Shown here piece after piece: positions 2,940 to 48,699 of a stretch of 64,000 nucleotides of DNA. Numbering within the stretch: position 1 is the first letter of the stretch; every line of letters starts with the position of its first letter. Source of the DNA: Mobula hypostoma (lineage: Eukaryota). A program made the translations under genes and the position numbers. The DNA lies in the NCBI RefSeq assembly GCF_963921235.1, contig NC_086097.1, positions 115,632,001 through 115,696,000 on the forward strand, given 5' to 3'. The notes beneath the pieces were generated by a model. The model saw only the letters and a program-made list of their open reading frames with translations, was not told the origin of the DNA and ran no database searches.

Positions 2940-3430
2940 AACTTTGTTATACACCACCTTCCTACTAATTTTTGCTATATTATATGCCTTCTCTTTTGCT
3001 TTTATTCTCTCTTTGACTTCTCTTGTCACCCATGGTTGCCTCATTCTCCCTTTAGAATACCTTCATCTTTGCGATGTATCTATCTTCTGCCTTCTGAATT
3101 GTCCCCTGAAATTGCAGGCATCGCTGTTTTGTTATCATCCCTGCTATTGTCACCTTCCAATTAACTTTGGCTAGCTTTTCTCTCATGTGTCTATAATTCC
3201 CCTTACTCCATTGTAATACTAATACGTCTGACTCTATCTTCTCCCTCTCAAAACTGCAGGGTGAGTTCTATCATATTACGATCACTCTCTTCAGAGGGTT
3301 CCTTTACCTTAAGCTCTCTAAGCAAATCTCATTCCTTACGCAGCACCCAATGCAGAGTTGCCTTTCTCCGAGTGGGCTGAAACAGAAATCTTGTAGGCAT
3401 TCTACAAATTCTCTCTCTAGGGATTCAGCG
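2940..3430 (-). mobile_element. Decayed CR1 ORF2 fragment (endonuclease C-terminal/linker region)
   Basis: Resembles the corresponding region of the CR1 copies at ~6300-6900 and ~31800-32340; many indels. Confidence 0.55.
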
Positions 3431-16149: not shown

Positions 16150-16540
16150 CTGTCACCATTATGCGCCATGTCATATGACATGGGTGATCATAATTGTTCT
16201 TGGCAAATTTTTCTACAGAAGTTGTTTGCCACTGCCTTCTTCTGGGCAGTGCCCTTGTAAGATGGGTGACCCCAGCCACTATCAATACTGTTCAGAGACT
16301 GCCTGCCTGGCATCAGTGGTTGCATAAACAGGACTTGTGATATGCACCAGCTGCTCATACAACCACCTGCCACCTGCTCTCATGGCTTCACATGACCCTG
16401 ATGGGCGGGGGTGGGGATGGTGGTGGTGTGGGTAAACCGGTGCTACACCTTGCCCAAGGGTGACCTGCCGGCTAGTGGATGGAAGAAGCATCTTACATCT
16501 TTTGGTACTTTGGTAGAAACATATTTCGACCTCACCACCT
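16150..16540 (-). mobile_element. SINE, probably with an RTE-related 3' tail
   Basis: tttgccactgccttcttctggg and ttgcccaagggtgacc segments resemble RTE-partnered SINEs; no ORF. Confidence 0.5.
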
Positions 16541-17754
16541 CATAGGACACTACAATACAGAAATGGAGACTACCTAGTCCATGCCAAACCATTATACTGC
16601 TTAGTCCCATTGATACCTTTCCTTCAGCTTACAGCATATTAATTAGAACCATAAAGTTCCACCCTGCCCACTGGGATATCAAAGCTGCTCATTTTTTATA
16701 TGTTTGGAGTTTTACCGAACGACATGGACCACTTTGATTTTTGTTTCATTTAATTTGTTCTTGTTGAACATTTAATATAGGTATTACAATTCTAATTTTT
16801 GAAGGAAAGTTTTCCAAAATTCACAATATTTAGGAGTGTTCCGATTAAGCATTAGACCTAAATGCAGTGGTCATTGAACACCCTAATTAACATGAATTCT
16901 AATTCCTTGGCAATTTCATCAAGTAAGCCTGTTTTCTACTGACTGCATTATACCTGCAGAAGGCAAAATGTGTACACCTCTGGCAAAATATGTGATCGAG
17001 CTATGGATGAGTTTGATAGGGGAGTTAGTGGTCAGGTTCGGGTTTAGGGATAGAGACATGGAGAAGTTAGAGGTAAGACCAAAGCCTAGGCCTCTGATCT
17101 GCTGTCAAAGGTCAGTGAGGATGAGAGCTGAGCTTGCACCTCCACCCCAGGTCACCCAGGTCACCGAGTCATCAGTGGGTTCCGGGATCGGAGTTCCCTG
17201 CAAGCAGGAGGTGCAAGAGCCGGTGACCACTCGGGTATGCGAATCGGTGAGACTGGAGTTTGAGGCCTAAAGTGTTCAGTGTCCCATTGTTGGTAAGTTT
17301 GGAGTTCAAGGTGCAGAGTCCTCACACGTTGTCATCAGTGAGTTCTGGGGTGAACACCAAAGAATGAAGCCCGAAAGTCGATCAGGAATTCAGAAATCGA
17401 GGTCCGATGGCCGGAGCCCTCAGTCTGCACCCTTTGTCTGAAATCTATGAGAGCACTGGAGGCCGAAGAAAGCCTGTCTTGGGGTTGGAGGACTGTATGT
17501 GAATAGGTGAGCAGGAGGGAGGAACAGATTTGGTTGTGCTGTTTTATTTTGTTATTTGTTGTGTTCAGCTTTGTTGTGTTCTGTGTTGTTCTGCTGAACA
17601 TTGTGGATGTACCAGGCTGGCACTGTAATGTGTGGTGACACCAGGGGGCTGTCTGCCACACACCCTTGAACCTGCTGGTTGCTAACACAAATAAACATTT
17701 TACCGTATGTTTCGATGTCCATGTGAAAAACAAATGAATCTGAATCCGATTAAT

Positions 17755-46250: not shown

Positions 46251-47825
46251 TGAAGGCATTTTATTTTTGGGGACACTGACATGTGTTTCATGGTGCCATG
46301 CAGAATTTGTGTCTATTGGTCCACCTCATCACCTTCACACACTGTCATGTGACAAGAGTCCCCTCTCATACTGAACACATGCTCACCCTTCTCCATTGAA
46401 GTCGCTGCTGATAATGTTTGTTCAGTGGTCTTTTTGCTCCTTGGCTCATTTTTCTGTGTAAAATCCAACCAGGAAGGTTGCTGCTACTATGAAACAAAAC
46501 AATCTATAGAAATTGGGAACTGACTGCAGAGATTGCAGGCTCGCCCACCCCACTGTTTGCATGGCGTGTAATATAAATCAGGACCCGACAGATACAAGTG
46601 CTTCTATTGGTGTGTAATGCAAGTCTGGATATATCCTCTGGGACTTTGATTATTGTCAACATTGCCTAAGGGTCACTCATCCAGAAACAAGCTTCCAACG
46701 TACTACTTTAAATTGAAAATGCACATCAGTGGAAAAGCCCTAAATAATAAGATAGAAAAATTACGGAAAAAAATGTACAAGGACTTGAGGACAAGGACAG
46801 AAGTTATAGGGAAAGGTTAAACAGGTTATGTCTTTATTCCCCAGAGCACAGGAGAAAGAGGGGAGATTTGATGAAGGCATACAAAGTTATGAAGAGTATA
46901 GATAGGGTAAATGCAAGCATGCTTTTTCCACTGACATTGGGTGAGACTAAAACTAAAGGTCATAGATTAGGAGTGAAAGGTGAAACATTTTAGGGGATTC
47001 TTTTTCACTCAGAGGGTGGTACAAGCAGAAGTGGTAGAGACCGGTTCATCTGAATATTTAAGAGAAAGTTAAGTAAATACATACATAGAATGGGTGCAGA
47101 GACAACGGTCCAGGTACAGGTGGATAGGACTATGCAGAATAACAGCTTGGCGCAGACTAGAAGGGCTGAAGTGCCTGTTTTCTGAGCTGAAGTGCTTGAT
47201 GATCCTATGGATCTAATGTAAGTCCCATTTAGTGTAAGTCATGCAGTTTGCCACTTTTCTTTGGTAAGCCCACGTCACCCACATCCACAACCCCACCTCC
47301 ATTCACCACAATTACACCACCATGTAGCAGTTCCCTCAGATGACCCATATGCTTGCAGTCTTCTTCCAGTATTCTCCTAGCATCTGCCACTTTTCTGACC
47401 CAACACTCTGTCAGTGATATTTCACTTACCATCTAGGTATTGTGATCAGACAATTATTAATAAAGGGCAGAGAATACCCATGGCATTTGCTTTACATATT
47501 GCTAGCAAAATGAATAGATGAATGTTCCTACAGATTGAGAAAAATGCACAATAAATTATTTTTTATTTGATGAAATTCTATGATTTGCTGTCATTTACTC
47601 TTCCTGTAGATCACAAGCAGTTACTGGAAAACCTGGATTATAAAGCAAAGGAAGCTTCCAGAATCCAAAGATGAGCAGTGTTGCTTTCACCGTCTTATTA
47701 CTCAGTTGAAAATTGTTTTCAAAGCAGAACGTAATTGTTGACAGTAGGTCTGGATTACTACATATCTTATGTGATATTCAAACTGAAGATCTGATTTTCA
47801 ACTTGCAGATAAGTATTTTCCTGTT

Positions 47826-48296
47826 CTTCTTTTCCTTCTTCTTCTTGTGCCCTTAACTCCTGGTGGAGTTGTTGGGGCGCCGTCATGACAAGCTTTGCAC
47901 CAGCTTTTTGGTGTGCTCATTATGTGGCGTGTCTTGGGCATCCGAAACCTGGCGGAGCCCATCCCTCTCCAGGTTTGACCACAGCCGATTTCCTCCAACT
48001 AGGTGACTCGCCTCGGTCGTGAACACGTGGCCATTATAGTTCATCTGAGGACCTTTCCGTCCCGGCCGGTGCCTTCAACATGGAAGTCTTTCGCCCAGTG
48101 GTGCCGTGTTAACACCACCCCCTCACGTGGTTTAGCCCACCAGCTGAAGTGGTTTACTGGGGTATGGCGCTTGCAGCCAACACGTGAGAGATTTAGGAGA
48201 TGGATGAGGACCAGTGATGCCCATCCACCCTGTCTGGTAGGAAGCAGCATGCCAGACATCAAAGGTACTACCTCTATTCAGAACCCCCCATACCCC
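47826..48296 (-). mobile_element. Non-autonomous retroposon (probably RTE-mobilised) with 5' HDV-like ribozyme and (AAG)n tail
   Basis: 11-bp TSD attttcctgtt (47815-47825 and 48297-48307); simple-repeat tail; no credible ORF. Confidence 0.75.
48122..48296 (-). ncRNA. Candidate HDV-like self-cleaving ribozyme
   Basis: P1 GGGGUAU/AUACCCC; P2 CUCACGUG/CACGUGAG; P3 GGC/GCC; L3 UGCAAGC; P4 CCAC/GUGG; J4/2 GCUAA; order matches the nested double pseudoknot. P1.1 is imperfect. Confidence 0.65.
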
Positions 48297-48699
48297 ATTT
48301 TCCTGTTATAGGCAATTAAATTACGCAAGTCATTCAGCAAGGTGCAATATTATCTTTAATGGGAATAGGTTATCCTGGAAAAATATCCAAATTAATATTG
48401 TCAGCCAATCATAGAACAGAGAACATGGAAAATTACAGGCCCTTAGGCCATAACATGCCAAACTTTAAAACTACTCTAAAATCAATCTAACCCTTCATTC
48501 ATGTGCCCATCTGTGTATCTTAAATAACCCCTAATGTATCTGCCTTGACCACCATCCCCGACAGCATGCTCCATGCACCCAACACTCTCTGTATAAAAAA
48601 AAAACTTACTTCTGGCATCCACCCCTATACTTTTGTCCAGGTACCTTAAAATTATGCCGCCTCATATTAGCCATTTAAACACAGAATAAGATTGTTTAA

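Follow-up and report, generated by a model that had tools for sequence, protein, structure and literature searches.

A TSD-flanked, ORF-less retroposon of Mobula hypostoma with a predicted large HDV-like ribozyme fold at its 5′ end, shared with an RTE-like LINE

The insert and its family

Within the window, the 64,000-nucleotide stretch of the Mobula hypostoma genome that was analyzed, the minus-strand insert at 47826-48296 is a single ORF-less retroposon copy, with target-site duplications (TSDs) on both sides, ending in an (AAG)n tail and belonging to a family with a length of about 465 nt. An earlier note on this DNA had described it as an ORF-less retroposon whose 5′ end is the first base of an HDV-like ribozyme fold, and this description stands. 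The features are as follows:

48297..48307, minus strand: 5′ TSD AACAGGAAAAT, 11 nt, exact, adjoining G1
48290..48296, minus strand: P1 5′ strand GGGGUAU, pairing 7/7 with 48159-48165; G1 is 48296, the base 3′ of the predicted cleavage site
48189..48289, minus strand: J1/2 insertion of about 101 nt, a peripheral domain that is rod-like in MFE folds and by its base draws P1 and P2 close to each other
48179..48188, minus strand: P2 5′ strand, 9/10 pairs with 48122-48131
48166..48178, minus strand: P3 GGC/GCC (48178-48176 with 48168-48166) around a 7-nt L3 (48175-48169), recognized by pairing
48159..48165, minus strand: P1 3′ strand AUACCCC, recognized by pairing with 48290-48296
48157..48158, minus strand: P1.1 partner dinucleotide, AG in the window copy and GG in the consensus
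48137..48152, minus strand: P4 hairpin, CCAC/GUGG (48152-48149 with 48140-48137), CCGC...GCGG in the consensus
48132..48136, minus strand: J4/2, with the sequence GCUAA that is its consensus in both families (this one and family D, below) and a putative catalytic C at 48135
48122..48131, minus strand: P2 3′ strand, pairing with 48179-48188
47903..48121, minus strand: remaining part of the LINE 5′ region that the SIDE retains (consensus 176-394), from alignment to the LINE
47902..47903, minus strand: internal-deletion junction joining LINE nt 394 to nt ~3261, from the alignment; contigs of public runs diverge here, with loose ends at 47903
47826..47902, minus strand: LINE 3′ end (end of the ORF, stop codon and ~46-nt 3′ UTR) and (AAG)n-type tail, from comparison with the LINE
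47815..47825, minus strand: 3′ TSD AACAGGAAAAT, an exact repeat of the 5′ TSD

The window copy is identical to the family consensus at 441 of 462 positions. More than 1,281 first-look candidates were found in the same genome; all 40 that were scored match the window copy at 90-93% identity (100% at the window's own place), and each of the 30 top copies begins with GGGGTAT.. and ends in an (AAG)n-type tail. For an unbiased sample, copies were chosen by an internal 22-mer, which had 113 exact matches (0 for the reversed control). The 5′ ends of these copies cluster at G1, as expected from the earlier note: 32 of 40 alignments begin at consensus nt 1-4, 2 begin at nt 7 and 9 with mutated ends, and the remaining 6 are truncated, beginning at nt 12-69. 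No homology was found by BLAST among the upstream flanks of the copies (0 matches). Among exact TSDs of at least 8 nt, 22 are credible; 10 of these abut G1 exactly and 5 overlap it by 1-3 G, while 3 stop 1-2 nt and 4 stop 4-7 nt before it; TSDs of full-length insertions are 8-13 bp long. The contig cover of 4 public runs (Logan) ends at 48296, although these contigs carry no information on RNA ends; at the mutated core positions of the window copy, including 48174, they have the consensus letters. Judged from its sequence, with both P1.1 pairs gone, the window copy is an old, dead insertion.

A parent LINE with an internal deletion

Consensus positions 1-394 of the SIDE correspond to LINE positions 1-394, and consensus positions 394-453 to LINE positions ~3261-3319. 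By this alignment, the element derives by internal deletion from a 3.3-kb LINE in the same genome, an APE+RT element of RTE-like build, and is thus bipartite and of SIDE type. Of the SINE/SIDE family inferred in the earlier note, it is the SIDE that is borne out, the 5′ 394 nt and the 3′ ~60 nt being the two ends of this LINE. The start codon of the LINE (47941-47939) and 13 codons are retained within 47903..48121, and the MPKTR... that they encode shares its reading frame with the APE-like N-terminus found in the LINE ORF of copy L091. The same head lies 2.9-3.5 kb upstream in 3 of 12 extended LINE 3′ ends (L091, L101, and L093), and L091, at 3.33 kb, has a 10-bp TSD abutting G1. The RT domain is recognizable (RVT_1, E = 1.5e-35), and the APE matches are sub-threshold (E = 0.006 and 0.013). 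The LINE has a single ORF, with the frames broken in all copies seen and the stop codon ~46 nt before the tail, the unit of which is (AAGG)n or (AAGGC)n in the LINE versus (AAG)n in the SIDE. Members of the RTE clade are compact, with a single ORF encoding an N-terminal APE and an RT, a very short 3′ UTR and a microsatellite tail.

A further short family of the same genome, group B, combines another head with an internal piece of the LINE 5′ region and the LINE 3′ end, without the ribozyme. A tRNA origin of the group B head was considered and is not supported, with 0 genes predicted by ARAGORN in 4 copies and the consensus and no tRNA match in Rfam for 6 copies. A box-B-like motif is visible by eye in this head.

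The predicted HDV-like fold

From G1 onwards, the family consensus has a complete HDV-like fold (a 7-bp P1, P2 crossing P1, P3, an L3 beginning UCC, P1.1, P4 and J4/2), which occupies the first ~175 nt of the element. P1, P1.1 and P3, the pairing on which the earlier note had made its reading depend, are fully paired in the consensus. The elements that the note listed for the window copy are also all there, namely the 7/7 P1, P2 with one mismatch, P3, the 7-nt L3, P4 and J4/2 GCUAA. P1.1 (CC with GG) is present in both family consensuses and absent from the window copy, which has lost both pairs through C123G (48174; L3 is UGCAAGC in the copy vs. UCCAAGC in the consensus) and G139A (48158, in a CpG). 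The note had suggested CpG decay as a possible cause of the missing P1.1 guanine, and this guess is right, the consensus having a G there next to a C; the note had named this one loss, and C123G is the second. In P4 of the window copy, G147A and C158U, both CpG transitions, keep the pair as A-U. Single copies have substitutions in J4/2, such as GAUAA, GUUAA, GCGAA, and GCUGA; the J4/2 motif of HDV-like ribozymes is C-N-R-A, in which the C is catalytic. One point against the ribozyme reading is that P1 opens with a G-C pair in the consensus, not with the G-U wobble of HDV and CPEB3.

The ~100-nt J1/2, which the earlier note had drawn as about three hairpins, takes instead the form of a single long, irregular rod that has small branches at its apex (-40.9 kcal/mol for the consensus, nt 9-13 closing with 99-103). 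Its stability is unremarkable in the window copy (z = -0.70; of 200 shuffles, 47 are as stable) and modest in the near-consensus copy L127 (z = -1.92; 8 of 200). The base of the rod is invariant between the families and hence shows no covariation.

The fold was then described by an HDV descriptor, which was written after the fold had been seen and which requires P1.1 in its full version and dispenses with it in its relaxed version. Because both of its P1.1 pairs are lost, the window copy fails the full descriptor and passes only without P1.1. On the two strands of the window, 128,000 positions in all, the relaxed version matches at 22 start positions, including 48296. For the full version there is 1 match in the window, and it lies elsewhere; starting at 16664 on the minus strand, it has a P1 rich in G-U, lacks a repeat context and was judged to be due to chance. 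At nt 1 of both family consensuses the full descriptor matches, whereas among 22,746 dinucleotide shuffles of the consensus a match at nt 1 occurs in 0 (full) or 7 (relaxed), with full matches anywhere in 64. Few individual copies keep the full core (9 of 70 sampled copies pass the descriptor), and in a subfamily where position 7 is C, P1 is reduced to 6 bp, without compensation.

Comparison with curated models counts against the reading. Rfam gave 0 matches at the gathering score in the whole window, and its HDV-family models, at E up to 10, none in the window copy or in 4 further loci (L127, L124, L142, and L108), where only unrelated weak matches appeared; this is a weak negative, as the models encode neither pseudoknots nor a 100-nt J1/2. 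Two of these loci, L127 and L142, pass the descriptor though unmatched by the HDV-family models.

Covariation between two families

A second short family, family D (consensus from 12 copies), is ~77% identical to the main family and ends ~440 nt from G1 with a 3′ end unlike that of the LINE. Six of the 8 substitutions that separate the two cores make up three compensatory pairs, and 0 pairs are broken, so that the covariation that the earlier note had proposed to look for is found between the family and D in P1, P2, and P3. In P1, A6-U133 becomes G-C in family D, with the G-U intermediate seen in one LINE copy, L123; in P3, G120-C130 becomes C-G (in alignment A3, 22 rows have the former and 7 the latter); and in P2, G116-C168 becomes C-G, a change that depends on the placement of a 1-nt deletion. 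The other core changes in D are the deletion of one base at the P2 mismatch and changes of the last L3 base and of one J1.1/4 base. The consensus of P4, P1.1 and J4/2 and the UCC with which L3 starts are unchanged between the families, and these parts are therefore uninformative on covariation.

In simulations with 11 random substitutions (400,000 trials), at least 2 compensated pairs arose in 0.05% of trials and at least 3 in none, and 4.9% of trials left no broken pair. In alignment A3, 28 cells are changed on both sides vs. 14.1 ± 3.2 in shuffles (0 of 500 reach 28), and 88% of cells are paired vs. 32-52% in slid controls. Within the family, 30 copies showed no covariation, their 88.1% of paired cells being equal to the shuffled mean; by this measure, copies within a family decay neutrally. 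The evolutionary support thus amounts to one two-lineage comparison with three events, since within-family covariation is absent. A search for a third lineage with a 35-place degenerate pattern on L3, P1.1, and P4 returned 79 matches (control, 0), all of the two known types. Family D was also considered as a second autonomous LINE, an idea rejected on finding that the 3.5 kb downstream of two D copies are without similarity to the LINE or its RT.

A ribozyme at the head of a SIDE-type element

We consider the element to be, with a probability of about 0.8, a SIDE-type derivative of an RTE-like APE+RT LINE, the first ~175 nt of which would encode a large HDV-like self-cleaving ribozyme. Under this scheme, the LINE and its short derivatives would be transcribed within longer Pol II transcripts, by read-through or from host genes. 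P1, P1.1, P2, P3, and P4 would then form the nested double pseudoknot, with the J1/2 rod pinching P1 and P2 together, and the J4/2 cytosine would catalyze scission just 5′ of G1, leaving a product RNA with G1 as its first base. The LINE protein may recognize the common ~60-nt 3′ end with its microsatellite tail and copy this RNA by target-primed reverse transcription. Full-length insertions would start at G1 with 8-13-bp TSDs because the RNA begins at G1 and is copied in this way. More tentatively, these elements may represent a lineage of large HDV-like ribozymes in vertebrates, marked by a rod-like J1/2 of ~100 nt, unseen by curated models and carried by an RTE-like LINE together with two short, independent derivatives, a proposal that we regard as possible though doubtful. 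Under this proposal, with about 1 in 8 sampled copies retaining the complete core, scattered copies on the order of a hundred could still cut the host transcripts in which they lie.

The 5′ ends at G1 would suit a fixed transcription start equally well, and the fold could be real without being a working ribozyme: G1 would be the start set by an internal Pol II promoter, and the structure would serve protein binding, RNA stability, or translation initiation. The first 77 nt of L1Tc are described as both promoter and ribozyme (PMC3383444), IRES-like roles of such 5′ structures are noted in a review (PMC6765202), and the lack of an Rfam match agrees with this reading. Against it, the unpaired residues that are conserved are exactly the ones that make up the catalytic core of HDV (L3 UCC.., the GG for P1.1 and the J4/2 C-N-R-A before the P2 3′ strand), and the consensus of this unpaired core is identical in two families while the helices change by compensation. 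Moreover, LINE, SIDE and family D start with the identical G, which in all three families is where the predicted cut falls, and another role would give no reason for P1 to lie at nt 1; we therefore hold a structured but non-catalytic 5′ end to be unlikely.

The HDV-like drawing might also be a chance pattern in a G+C-rich, structured 5′ UTR, a view to which the 22 relaxed matches in the window, the 64 shuffles with a full match anywhere, the unremarkable stability of J1/2, and the lack of within-family covariation lend something. Yet no shuffle matches in full at nt 1, the consensus repairs the defects of the copy, and three compensatory changes with none broken relative to D exceed what any simulation reached; chance is very improbable as an explanation and already close to refuted. 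Scarcely credible is an ordinary Pol III SINE with a head derived from a small RNA. The size of ~465 nt, the lack of an ORF, the copy number and the TSDs are all SINE-like, but ARAGORN finds no tRNA and Rfam no small-RNA family, the whole 5′ 394 nt are collinear with the 5′ end of an autonomous LINE, and group B, in the same genome, carries another head in place of the ribozyme.

Comparison with known systems

According to PMC5786205 and PMC6765202, both of which cite Ruminski 2011, HDV-like ribozymes, predicted or found, lie at the 5′ ends of LINEs including RTE and R2, and the non-LTR hosts named there are R2, RTE, baggins/LOA, R4, and L1Tc/Ingi (Ruminski et al. 2011, via the same two sources). 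The present elements resemble those described in having a nested double-pseudoknot core, a predicted cut site at the first base, an APE+RT host of RTE-like build, and a proposed release of the RNA from a longer transcript; they differ in that the host is a 3.5-Gb animal genome, no Rfam model recognizes the sequence, and the fold is a prediction. The ribozyme drz-Agam-2-1 from mosquito is likewise large, with a structured J1/2 domain, P1.2 (Webb et al. 2016, PMC4908430). As described there, it shares with our elements a long P1-P2 insertion predicted to fold on itself with its base joining the ends of P1 and P2, whereas the insertion here is ~100 nt long and forms an irregular rod of about -41 kcal/mol with weak stability relative to shuffles. 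By analogy with the account in PMC4908430, we infer that the rod may benefit catalysis.

The R2 SIDEs of Drosophila and the R2/R1 hybrid SIDEs (Eickbush and Eickbush 2012, PMC3414825) are, by that account, also short and ORF-less, join a LINE 5′ ribozyme with variable J1/2 to a LINE 3′ end, and are propagated in trans by the LINE machinery rather than being Pol III SINEs. In contrast to them, the parent here is of APE type and inserts genome-wide with TSDs rather than into rDNA, copies number hundreds to thousands rather than a few, and 394 nt of the 5′ end, 13 codons among them, are retained in the SIDE. Kojima (2018, PMC5786205) treats bipartite ORF-absent RTE elements (RTESINE1/2, MAR4_MD, WALLSI3, and Bov-A) and SINEs built from them; like the present family, these bipartite elements consist of the extreme 5′ and extreme 3′ ends of an RTE-type LINE, and group B has the build proposed there, with another head, an internal LINE 5′ piece and the 3′ end, and the ribozyme omitted. 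That paper suggests a 5′ ribozyme as the explanation of such builds, and its passages on these elements cite predictions and show none in them, whereas the present analysis documents the ribozyme fold both for the LINE and for two bipartite families.

In Trypanosoma cruzi, as described in PMC3185411 and PMC3383444, an autonomous LINE, L1Tc, and its truncated non-autonomous partner, NARTc, similarly have a common 5′ HDV-like ribozyme, L1TcRz, in the Pr77 hallmark, although the L1Tc ribozyme is a compact 77 nt, acts also as a promoter and belongs to a protist element of the Ingi clade. Perere-3 of Schistosoma mansoni (RTE clade) carries Twister T-variant ribozymes at its 5′ end (PMC8501958); it is akin to our LINE as an RTE-type element with a 5′ self-cleaving ribozyme (efficient in Perere-3) and APE-mediated non-specific insertion with TSDs, although its ribozyme is of another class.

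To judge from these accounts, the element is a well-supported new example of a kind already in print, namely ribozyme-headed RTE and R2 LINEs, SIDEs, and bipartite ORF-less RTE derivatives (PMC5786205, PMC3414825, and PMC6765202). The principle, already established for R2, L1Tc, and insect RTEs, is unchanged; what is added is an HDV-like ribozyme fold for one RTE-like LINE of a large animal genome, together with the deleted derivatives of this LINE. Since standard Rfam scans see nothing here, catalogues are probably incomplete for forms with a long J1/2. The elements also provide a worked case for the hypothesis put forward in PMC5786205, in that bipartite RTEs keep the extreme 5′ end, here the predicted ribozyme, and head-adding families take an internal 5′ piece. 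If the more tentative proposal of a vertebrate ribozyme lineage is true, the LINE, the SIDE, in which the ribozyme is kept, and group B, in which it is left out, would form a natural test of whether a 5′ ribozyme decides which parts of a LINE are usable in SINEs.

Structure, copy number and 5′ ends of the retroposon family

The earlier note described an ORF-less retroposon starting at the first base of an HDV-like ribozyme fold, and this description is confirmed: on the minus strand of the window, an insert bounded by an exact direct repeat starts at G1 of the fold and terminates in an (AAG)-type tail. Every pairing that had been listed is present in the window copy, in the order characteristic of HDV-like ribozymes:

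Features of the window copy
48296-47826, minus: insert, with an 11-bp direct repeat at both sides
48307-48297 and 47825-47815, minus: direct repeat AACAGGAAAAT, 11 bp, exact, bounding the insert
48296-48290 with 48165-48159, minus: P1, GGGGUAU with AUACCCC, 7/7 paired
48188-48179 with 48131-48122, minus: P2, 9/10 paired
within the fold, minus: P3, GGC/GCC, paired
within the fold, minus: L3, 7 nt
within the fold, minus: P4, CCAC/GUGG
48135, minus: candidate catalytic C within J4/2, GCUAA

Rfam returned no matches in the whole window at the gathering score, and a permissive scan of 47700-48400 yielded four weak, unrelated hits and no ribozyme match. ARAGORN detected no tRNA in the element.

DNA searches of the genome (3.48 Gb in 200 contigs) produced at least 1,281 first-look candidates for the window copy. 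All 40 that were scored are 90-93% identical to it and nearly all are full length (100% being the window's own locus), and the 30 best-scoring loci share the GGGGTAT start and an (AAG)n-type tail, many with clear target site duplications (TSDs). Because these 30 loci were selected by score, a second sample was drawn by matching a 22-mer from inside the head, with 113 exact matches in the genome and none in the reversed control; 40 places were taken in list order, leaving out those already sampled. This sample contained 16 short copies, 12 members of the related family D, 11 heads of the LINE and 1 fragment. Copy 5′ ends are clustered at G1, as the earlier note had anticipated: 32 of the 40 alignments begin at consensus nt 1-4, 2 have mutated ends and begin at nt 7 and nt 9, and 6 copies are 5′-truncated, at nt 12, 15, 37, 41, 48 and 69. 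A scripted search of 46 short copies located the tail in 40, and in 22 it identified a credible exact TSD 8 nt or longer. This repeat adjoins G1 exactly in 10 copies and overlaps it by 1-3 G in 5; in the other copies it stops short of G1, by 1-2 nt in 3 and by 4-7 nt in 4. The 140-nt upstream flanks of the copies gave 0 hits to one another.

A parent LINE and its short derivatives

An exact search for the family's 3′ motif matched 390 places in the genome (0 in the control). Of these, 60 were sampled and included 4 members of the SIDE family, 28 (plus up to 5 shorter) LINE 3′ ends and 23 members of a third short family, group B. In the LINE, approximately 46 nt separate the end of the ORF from a tail of (AAGG)n or (AAGGC)n type, and a complete SIDE head lies 2.9-3.5 kb upstream in 3 of the 12 LINE 3′ ends extended by 6 kb. 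In L091, a 3.33-kb LINE, a 10-bp TSD directly adjoins GGGGTAT. Nucleotides 1-394 of the SIDE consensus correspond to LINE nt 1-394, and nt 394-453 to the last approximately 60 nt of the LINE. Both ends being collinear with those of the LINE, the short element is an internally deleted, bipartite, SIDE-type derivative of it. The LINE start codon is at consensus nt 356 (window 47941-47939), so that 13 codons are kept in the short element. The LINE carries one reading frame, which is interrupted in all copies examined and contains an RVT_1 match (E 1.5e-35) and, N-terminally, an APE-like region whose Pfam hits fall below the cut-off (E 0.006 and 0.013). In length, in having one APE+RT ORF, in its very short 3′ UTR and in its microsatellite tail, the LINE resembles elements of the RTE clade.

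Single SIDE or LINE heads carry additional internal deletions or rearrangements (L045, L066, L055, L122 and L125); in L066, for example, consensus 1-65 runs directly into 279-462, and 375-413 is missing from L045. Locus L060 (G000:C2:97297751-97298819) holds the final ~43 nt of the LINE 3′ end twice, in inverted orientation and ~60 nt apart.

Despite the common 3′ end, tails at loci L031-L090 differ: (AAGG)n or (AAGGC)n in the LINE, (AAG)n in the SIDE and (AC)n in group B. Group B is a short family without the ribozyme, whose last ~130 nt join a segment from within the LINE 5′ region (SIDE consensus ~321-393) to the LINE 3′ end, preceded by a different head and an A-run. A box-B-like motif is visible by eye in this head, which neither ARAGORN nor Rfam called as a tRNA. 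Group B was sampled at L033, L036-L038, L040, L042-L044, L050, L058, L062, L065, L070, L071, L078, L080, L085 and L087 (each ~450-960, element orientation).

The predicted ribozyme core in the consensus and its decay in copies

In the majority consensus of 30 copies, P1, P1.1 and P3 are all formed. The window copy matches this consensus at 441/462 positions, and the consensus is better precisely at the diagnostic sites: L3 begins UCC rather than UGC, the 2 bases after P1 are GG rather than AG, and P4 is CCGC/GCGG. In the window copy, C123G and G139A abolish both P1.1 pairs, whereas G147A plus C158U retain the P4 pair as A-U. The earlier suggestion that the P1.1 guanine reads A through CpG decay agrees with the consensus G, which lies within a CpG, but overlooks the second P1.1 pair, lost through C123G. 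Contigs of 4 public runs carry the consensus letters at the mutated core places, which shows that the consensus is correct, not that the RNA is cut. Among sequencing runs on public record, no RNA run was found to contain this stretch.

We formalized the fold as a descriptor that requires G1 and a P1 of 7 bp, allows J1/2 to be up to 130 nt long, and further asks for at least 6 bp in P2, 3 Watson-Crick pairs in P3, an L3 loop 6-8 nt in length, both P1.1 pairs, 4 bp in P4, and C-N-R-A immediately ahead of the P2 3′ strand. It matches at nt 1 of the SIDE and family D consensuses and nowhere else in either, and at one other start on the 2 strands of the 64-kb window, probably by chance. At that match (~16400-16664, minus strand), P1 is rich in G-U pairs and no repeat boundary is apparent. 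Among 22,746 dinucleotide shuffles of the consensus, the full descriptor occurred anywhere in 64 and at nt 1 in 0, and at nt 1 in 7 when P1.1 was not required, odds that are somewhat inflated because the descriptor was written after the fold was seen. Only 9 of the 70 sampled copies pass it (4/30, 3/16, 1/11 and 1/12 in 4 groups), and the window copy is one of the many that have decayed; where nt 7 is C, as in one subfamily, P1 shortens to 6 bp with no compensation.

Rather than the approximately 3 hairpins proposed earlier, J1/2 (nt 8-108) is predicted to fold into a single long, irregular rod, at −40.9 kcal/mol for the consensus and −40.7 for family D; its stability z-score is −0.70 in the window copy and −1.92 in a copy close to the consensus. 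At its predicted base, nt 9-13 pair with nt 99-103, adjoining the ends of P1 and P2; the differences between SIDE and family D are apical, in a part that is predicted to fold differently in the two. The predicted rod bears a weakly supported likeness to the peripheral J1/2 (P1.2) domain, which activates large HDV-like ribozymes by pulling P1 and P2 close to each other (PMC4908430); J1/2 of R2 ribozymes is described as highly variable (PMC3414825).

Compensatory changes between two families

Within the SIDE family, no covariation was found among 30 copies (88.1% paired cells, equal to the shuffled mean; score 0.059 versus 0.061 shuffled), as expected if copies decay neutrally after insertion, and this result neither supports nor contradicts the fold. 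The informative comparison is with family D (12 copies), which is 76-80% identical to the SIDE over nt 1-370 and shares the G1 start. Across the 175-nt ribozyme region, the 2 consensuses differ by 11 substituted and 2 deleted positions. Eight substitutions fall in the core (nt 1-7 and 109-175), and 6 of these 8 are both sides of 3 base pairs. From SIDE to family D, A6-U133 in P1 becomes G-C, G120-C130 in P3 becomes C-G, and G116-C168 in P2 becomes C-G, the last depending on the placing of a 1-nt deletion. P1, P2 and P3 thus each carry a compensatory change, the covariation for which the earlier note had called. The other core changes are a base deleted at the single P2 mismatch, a substitution at the last L3 base and another between P1.1 and P4. 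All pairs stay intact, and the L3 (UCCAAG), P1.1 GG, P4 and GCUAA consensus is identical in both families. When 11 random substitutions over 175 nt were simulated 400,000 times, at least 2 compensated pairs arose in 0.05% of trials and 3 in none, and no pair was broken in 4.9%.

In A3, an alignment of 34 heads, pair 6/133 is A-U in 21, G-C in 6 and G-U in 3, and the middle P3 pair is G-C in 22 and C-G in 7. Cells changed on both sides number 28 (14.1 ± 3.2 shuffled) and the covariation score is 0.171 (0.129 shuffled), neither value being reached in any of 500 shuffles, and 88% of cells are paired versus 32-52% in slid controls; relatedness alone can beat the shuffle comparison, which is in substance 3 events on one branch. 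One LINE copy, L123, has a G-U intermediate in P1. A degenerate pattern on L3, P1.1 and P4 matched 79 places in the genome (0 in the control), all of SIDE or family D type and with P3 and P1 variants always linked; it revealed no third ribozyme lineage.

Family D (L104-L106, L108, L111, L115, L117, L118, L121, L128, L134 and L141; also L143 and L144) is ORF-less and ~440 nt long. Its 3′ end, unlike that of the SIDE, has short GAACC/AAAC-like repeats, implying another LINE partner. In L143, an RT-like fragment of another LINE type lies downstream of the family D copy (~1592-1840); at E 1e-3 it does not match the RTE-like RT.

Proposed mobilization and relation to known elements

The evidence demonstrates a family, its parent LINE, copy 5′ ends at G1, a complete HDV-type core in the consensus and 3 compensatory changes. 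The observation of a retroposon headed by an HDV-like fold is confirmed, and its interpretation as an HDV-like ribozyme-headed SIDE is supported, with cleavage as a putative step. The element would be transcribed within longer Pol II transcripts, the J4/2 cytosine would drive self-scission 5′ of G1, and the SIDE would be mobilized in trans through the 3′ end common to the LINE. The main rival, which is less probable, holds that G1 is a transcription start and that the fold serves another role.

The ribozyme-headed reading has precedents. The 5′ ends of R2, R1, R4, RTE, Ingi and LOA elements have been found, or are predicted, to carry HDV-like ribozymes (PMC5786205 and PMC6765202, citing Ruminski et al. 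2011), NARTc shares the ribozyme of L1Tc (PMC3383444), and an RTE element of a flatworm is described as carrying a twister variant instead (PMC8501958). Mammals are known to have bipartite RTE derivatives that lack an ORF (PMC5786205), and group B, with an internal 5′ piece and no ribozyme, matches a proposal made in that paper. A literature search that lay outside most subscription journals, Repbase and Dfam yielded no paper on the SIDE family or on HDV-like ribozymes in cartilaginous fishes, and the family may therefore well be catalogued as a repeat. The element is a well-documented example of an already known kind of ribozyme-headed retroposon, to which it adds an HDV-like form that escapes Rfam, and a single genome with a LINE, 2 ribozyme-headed short families and a third that has the internal 5′ piece but lacks the ribozyme.
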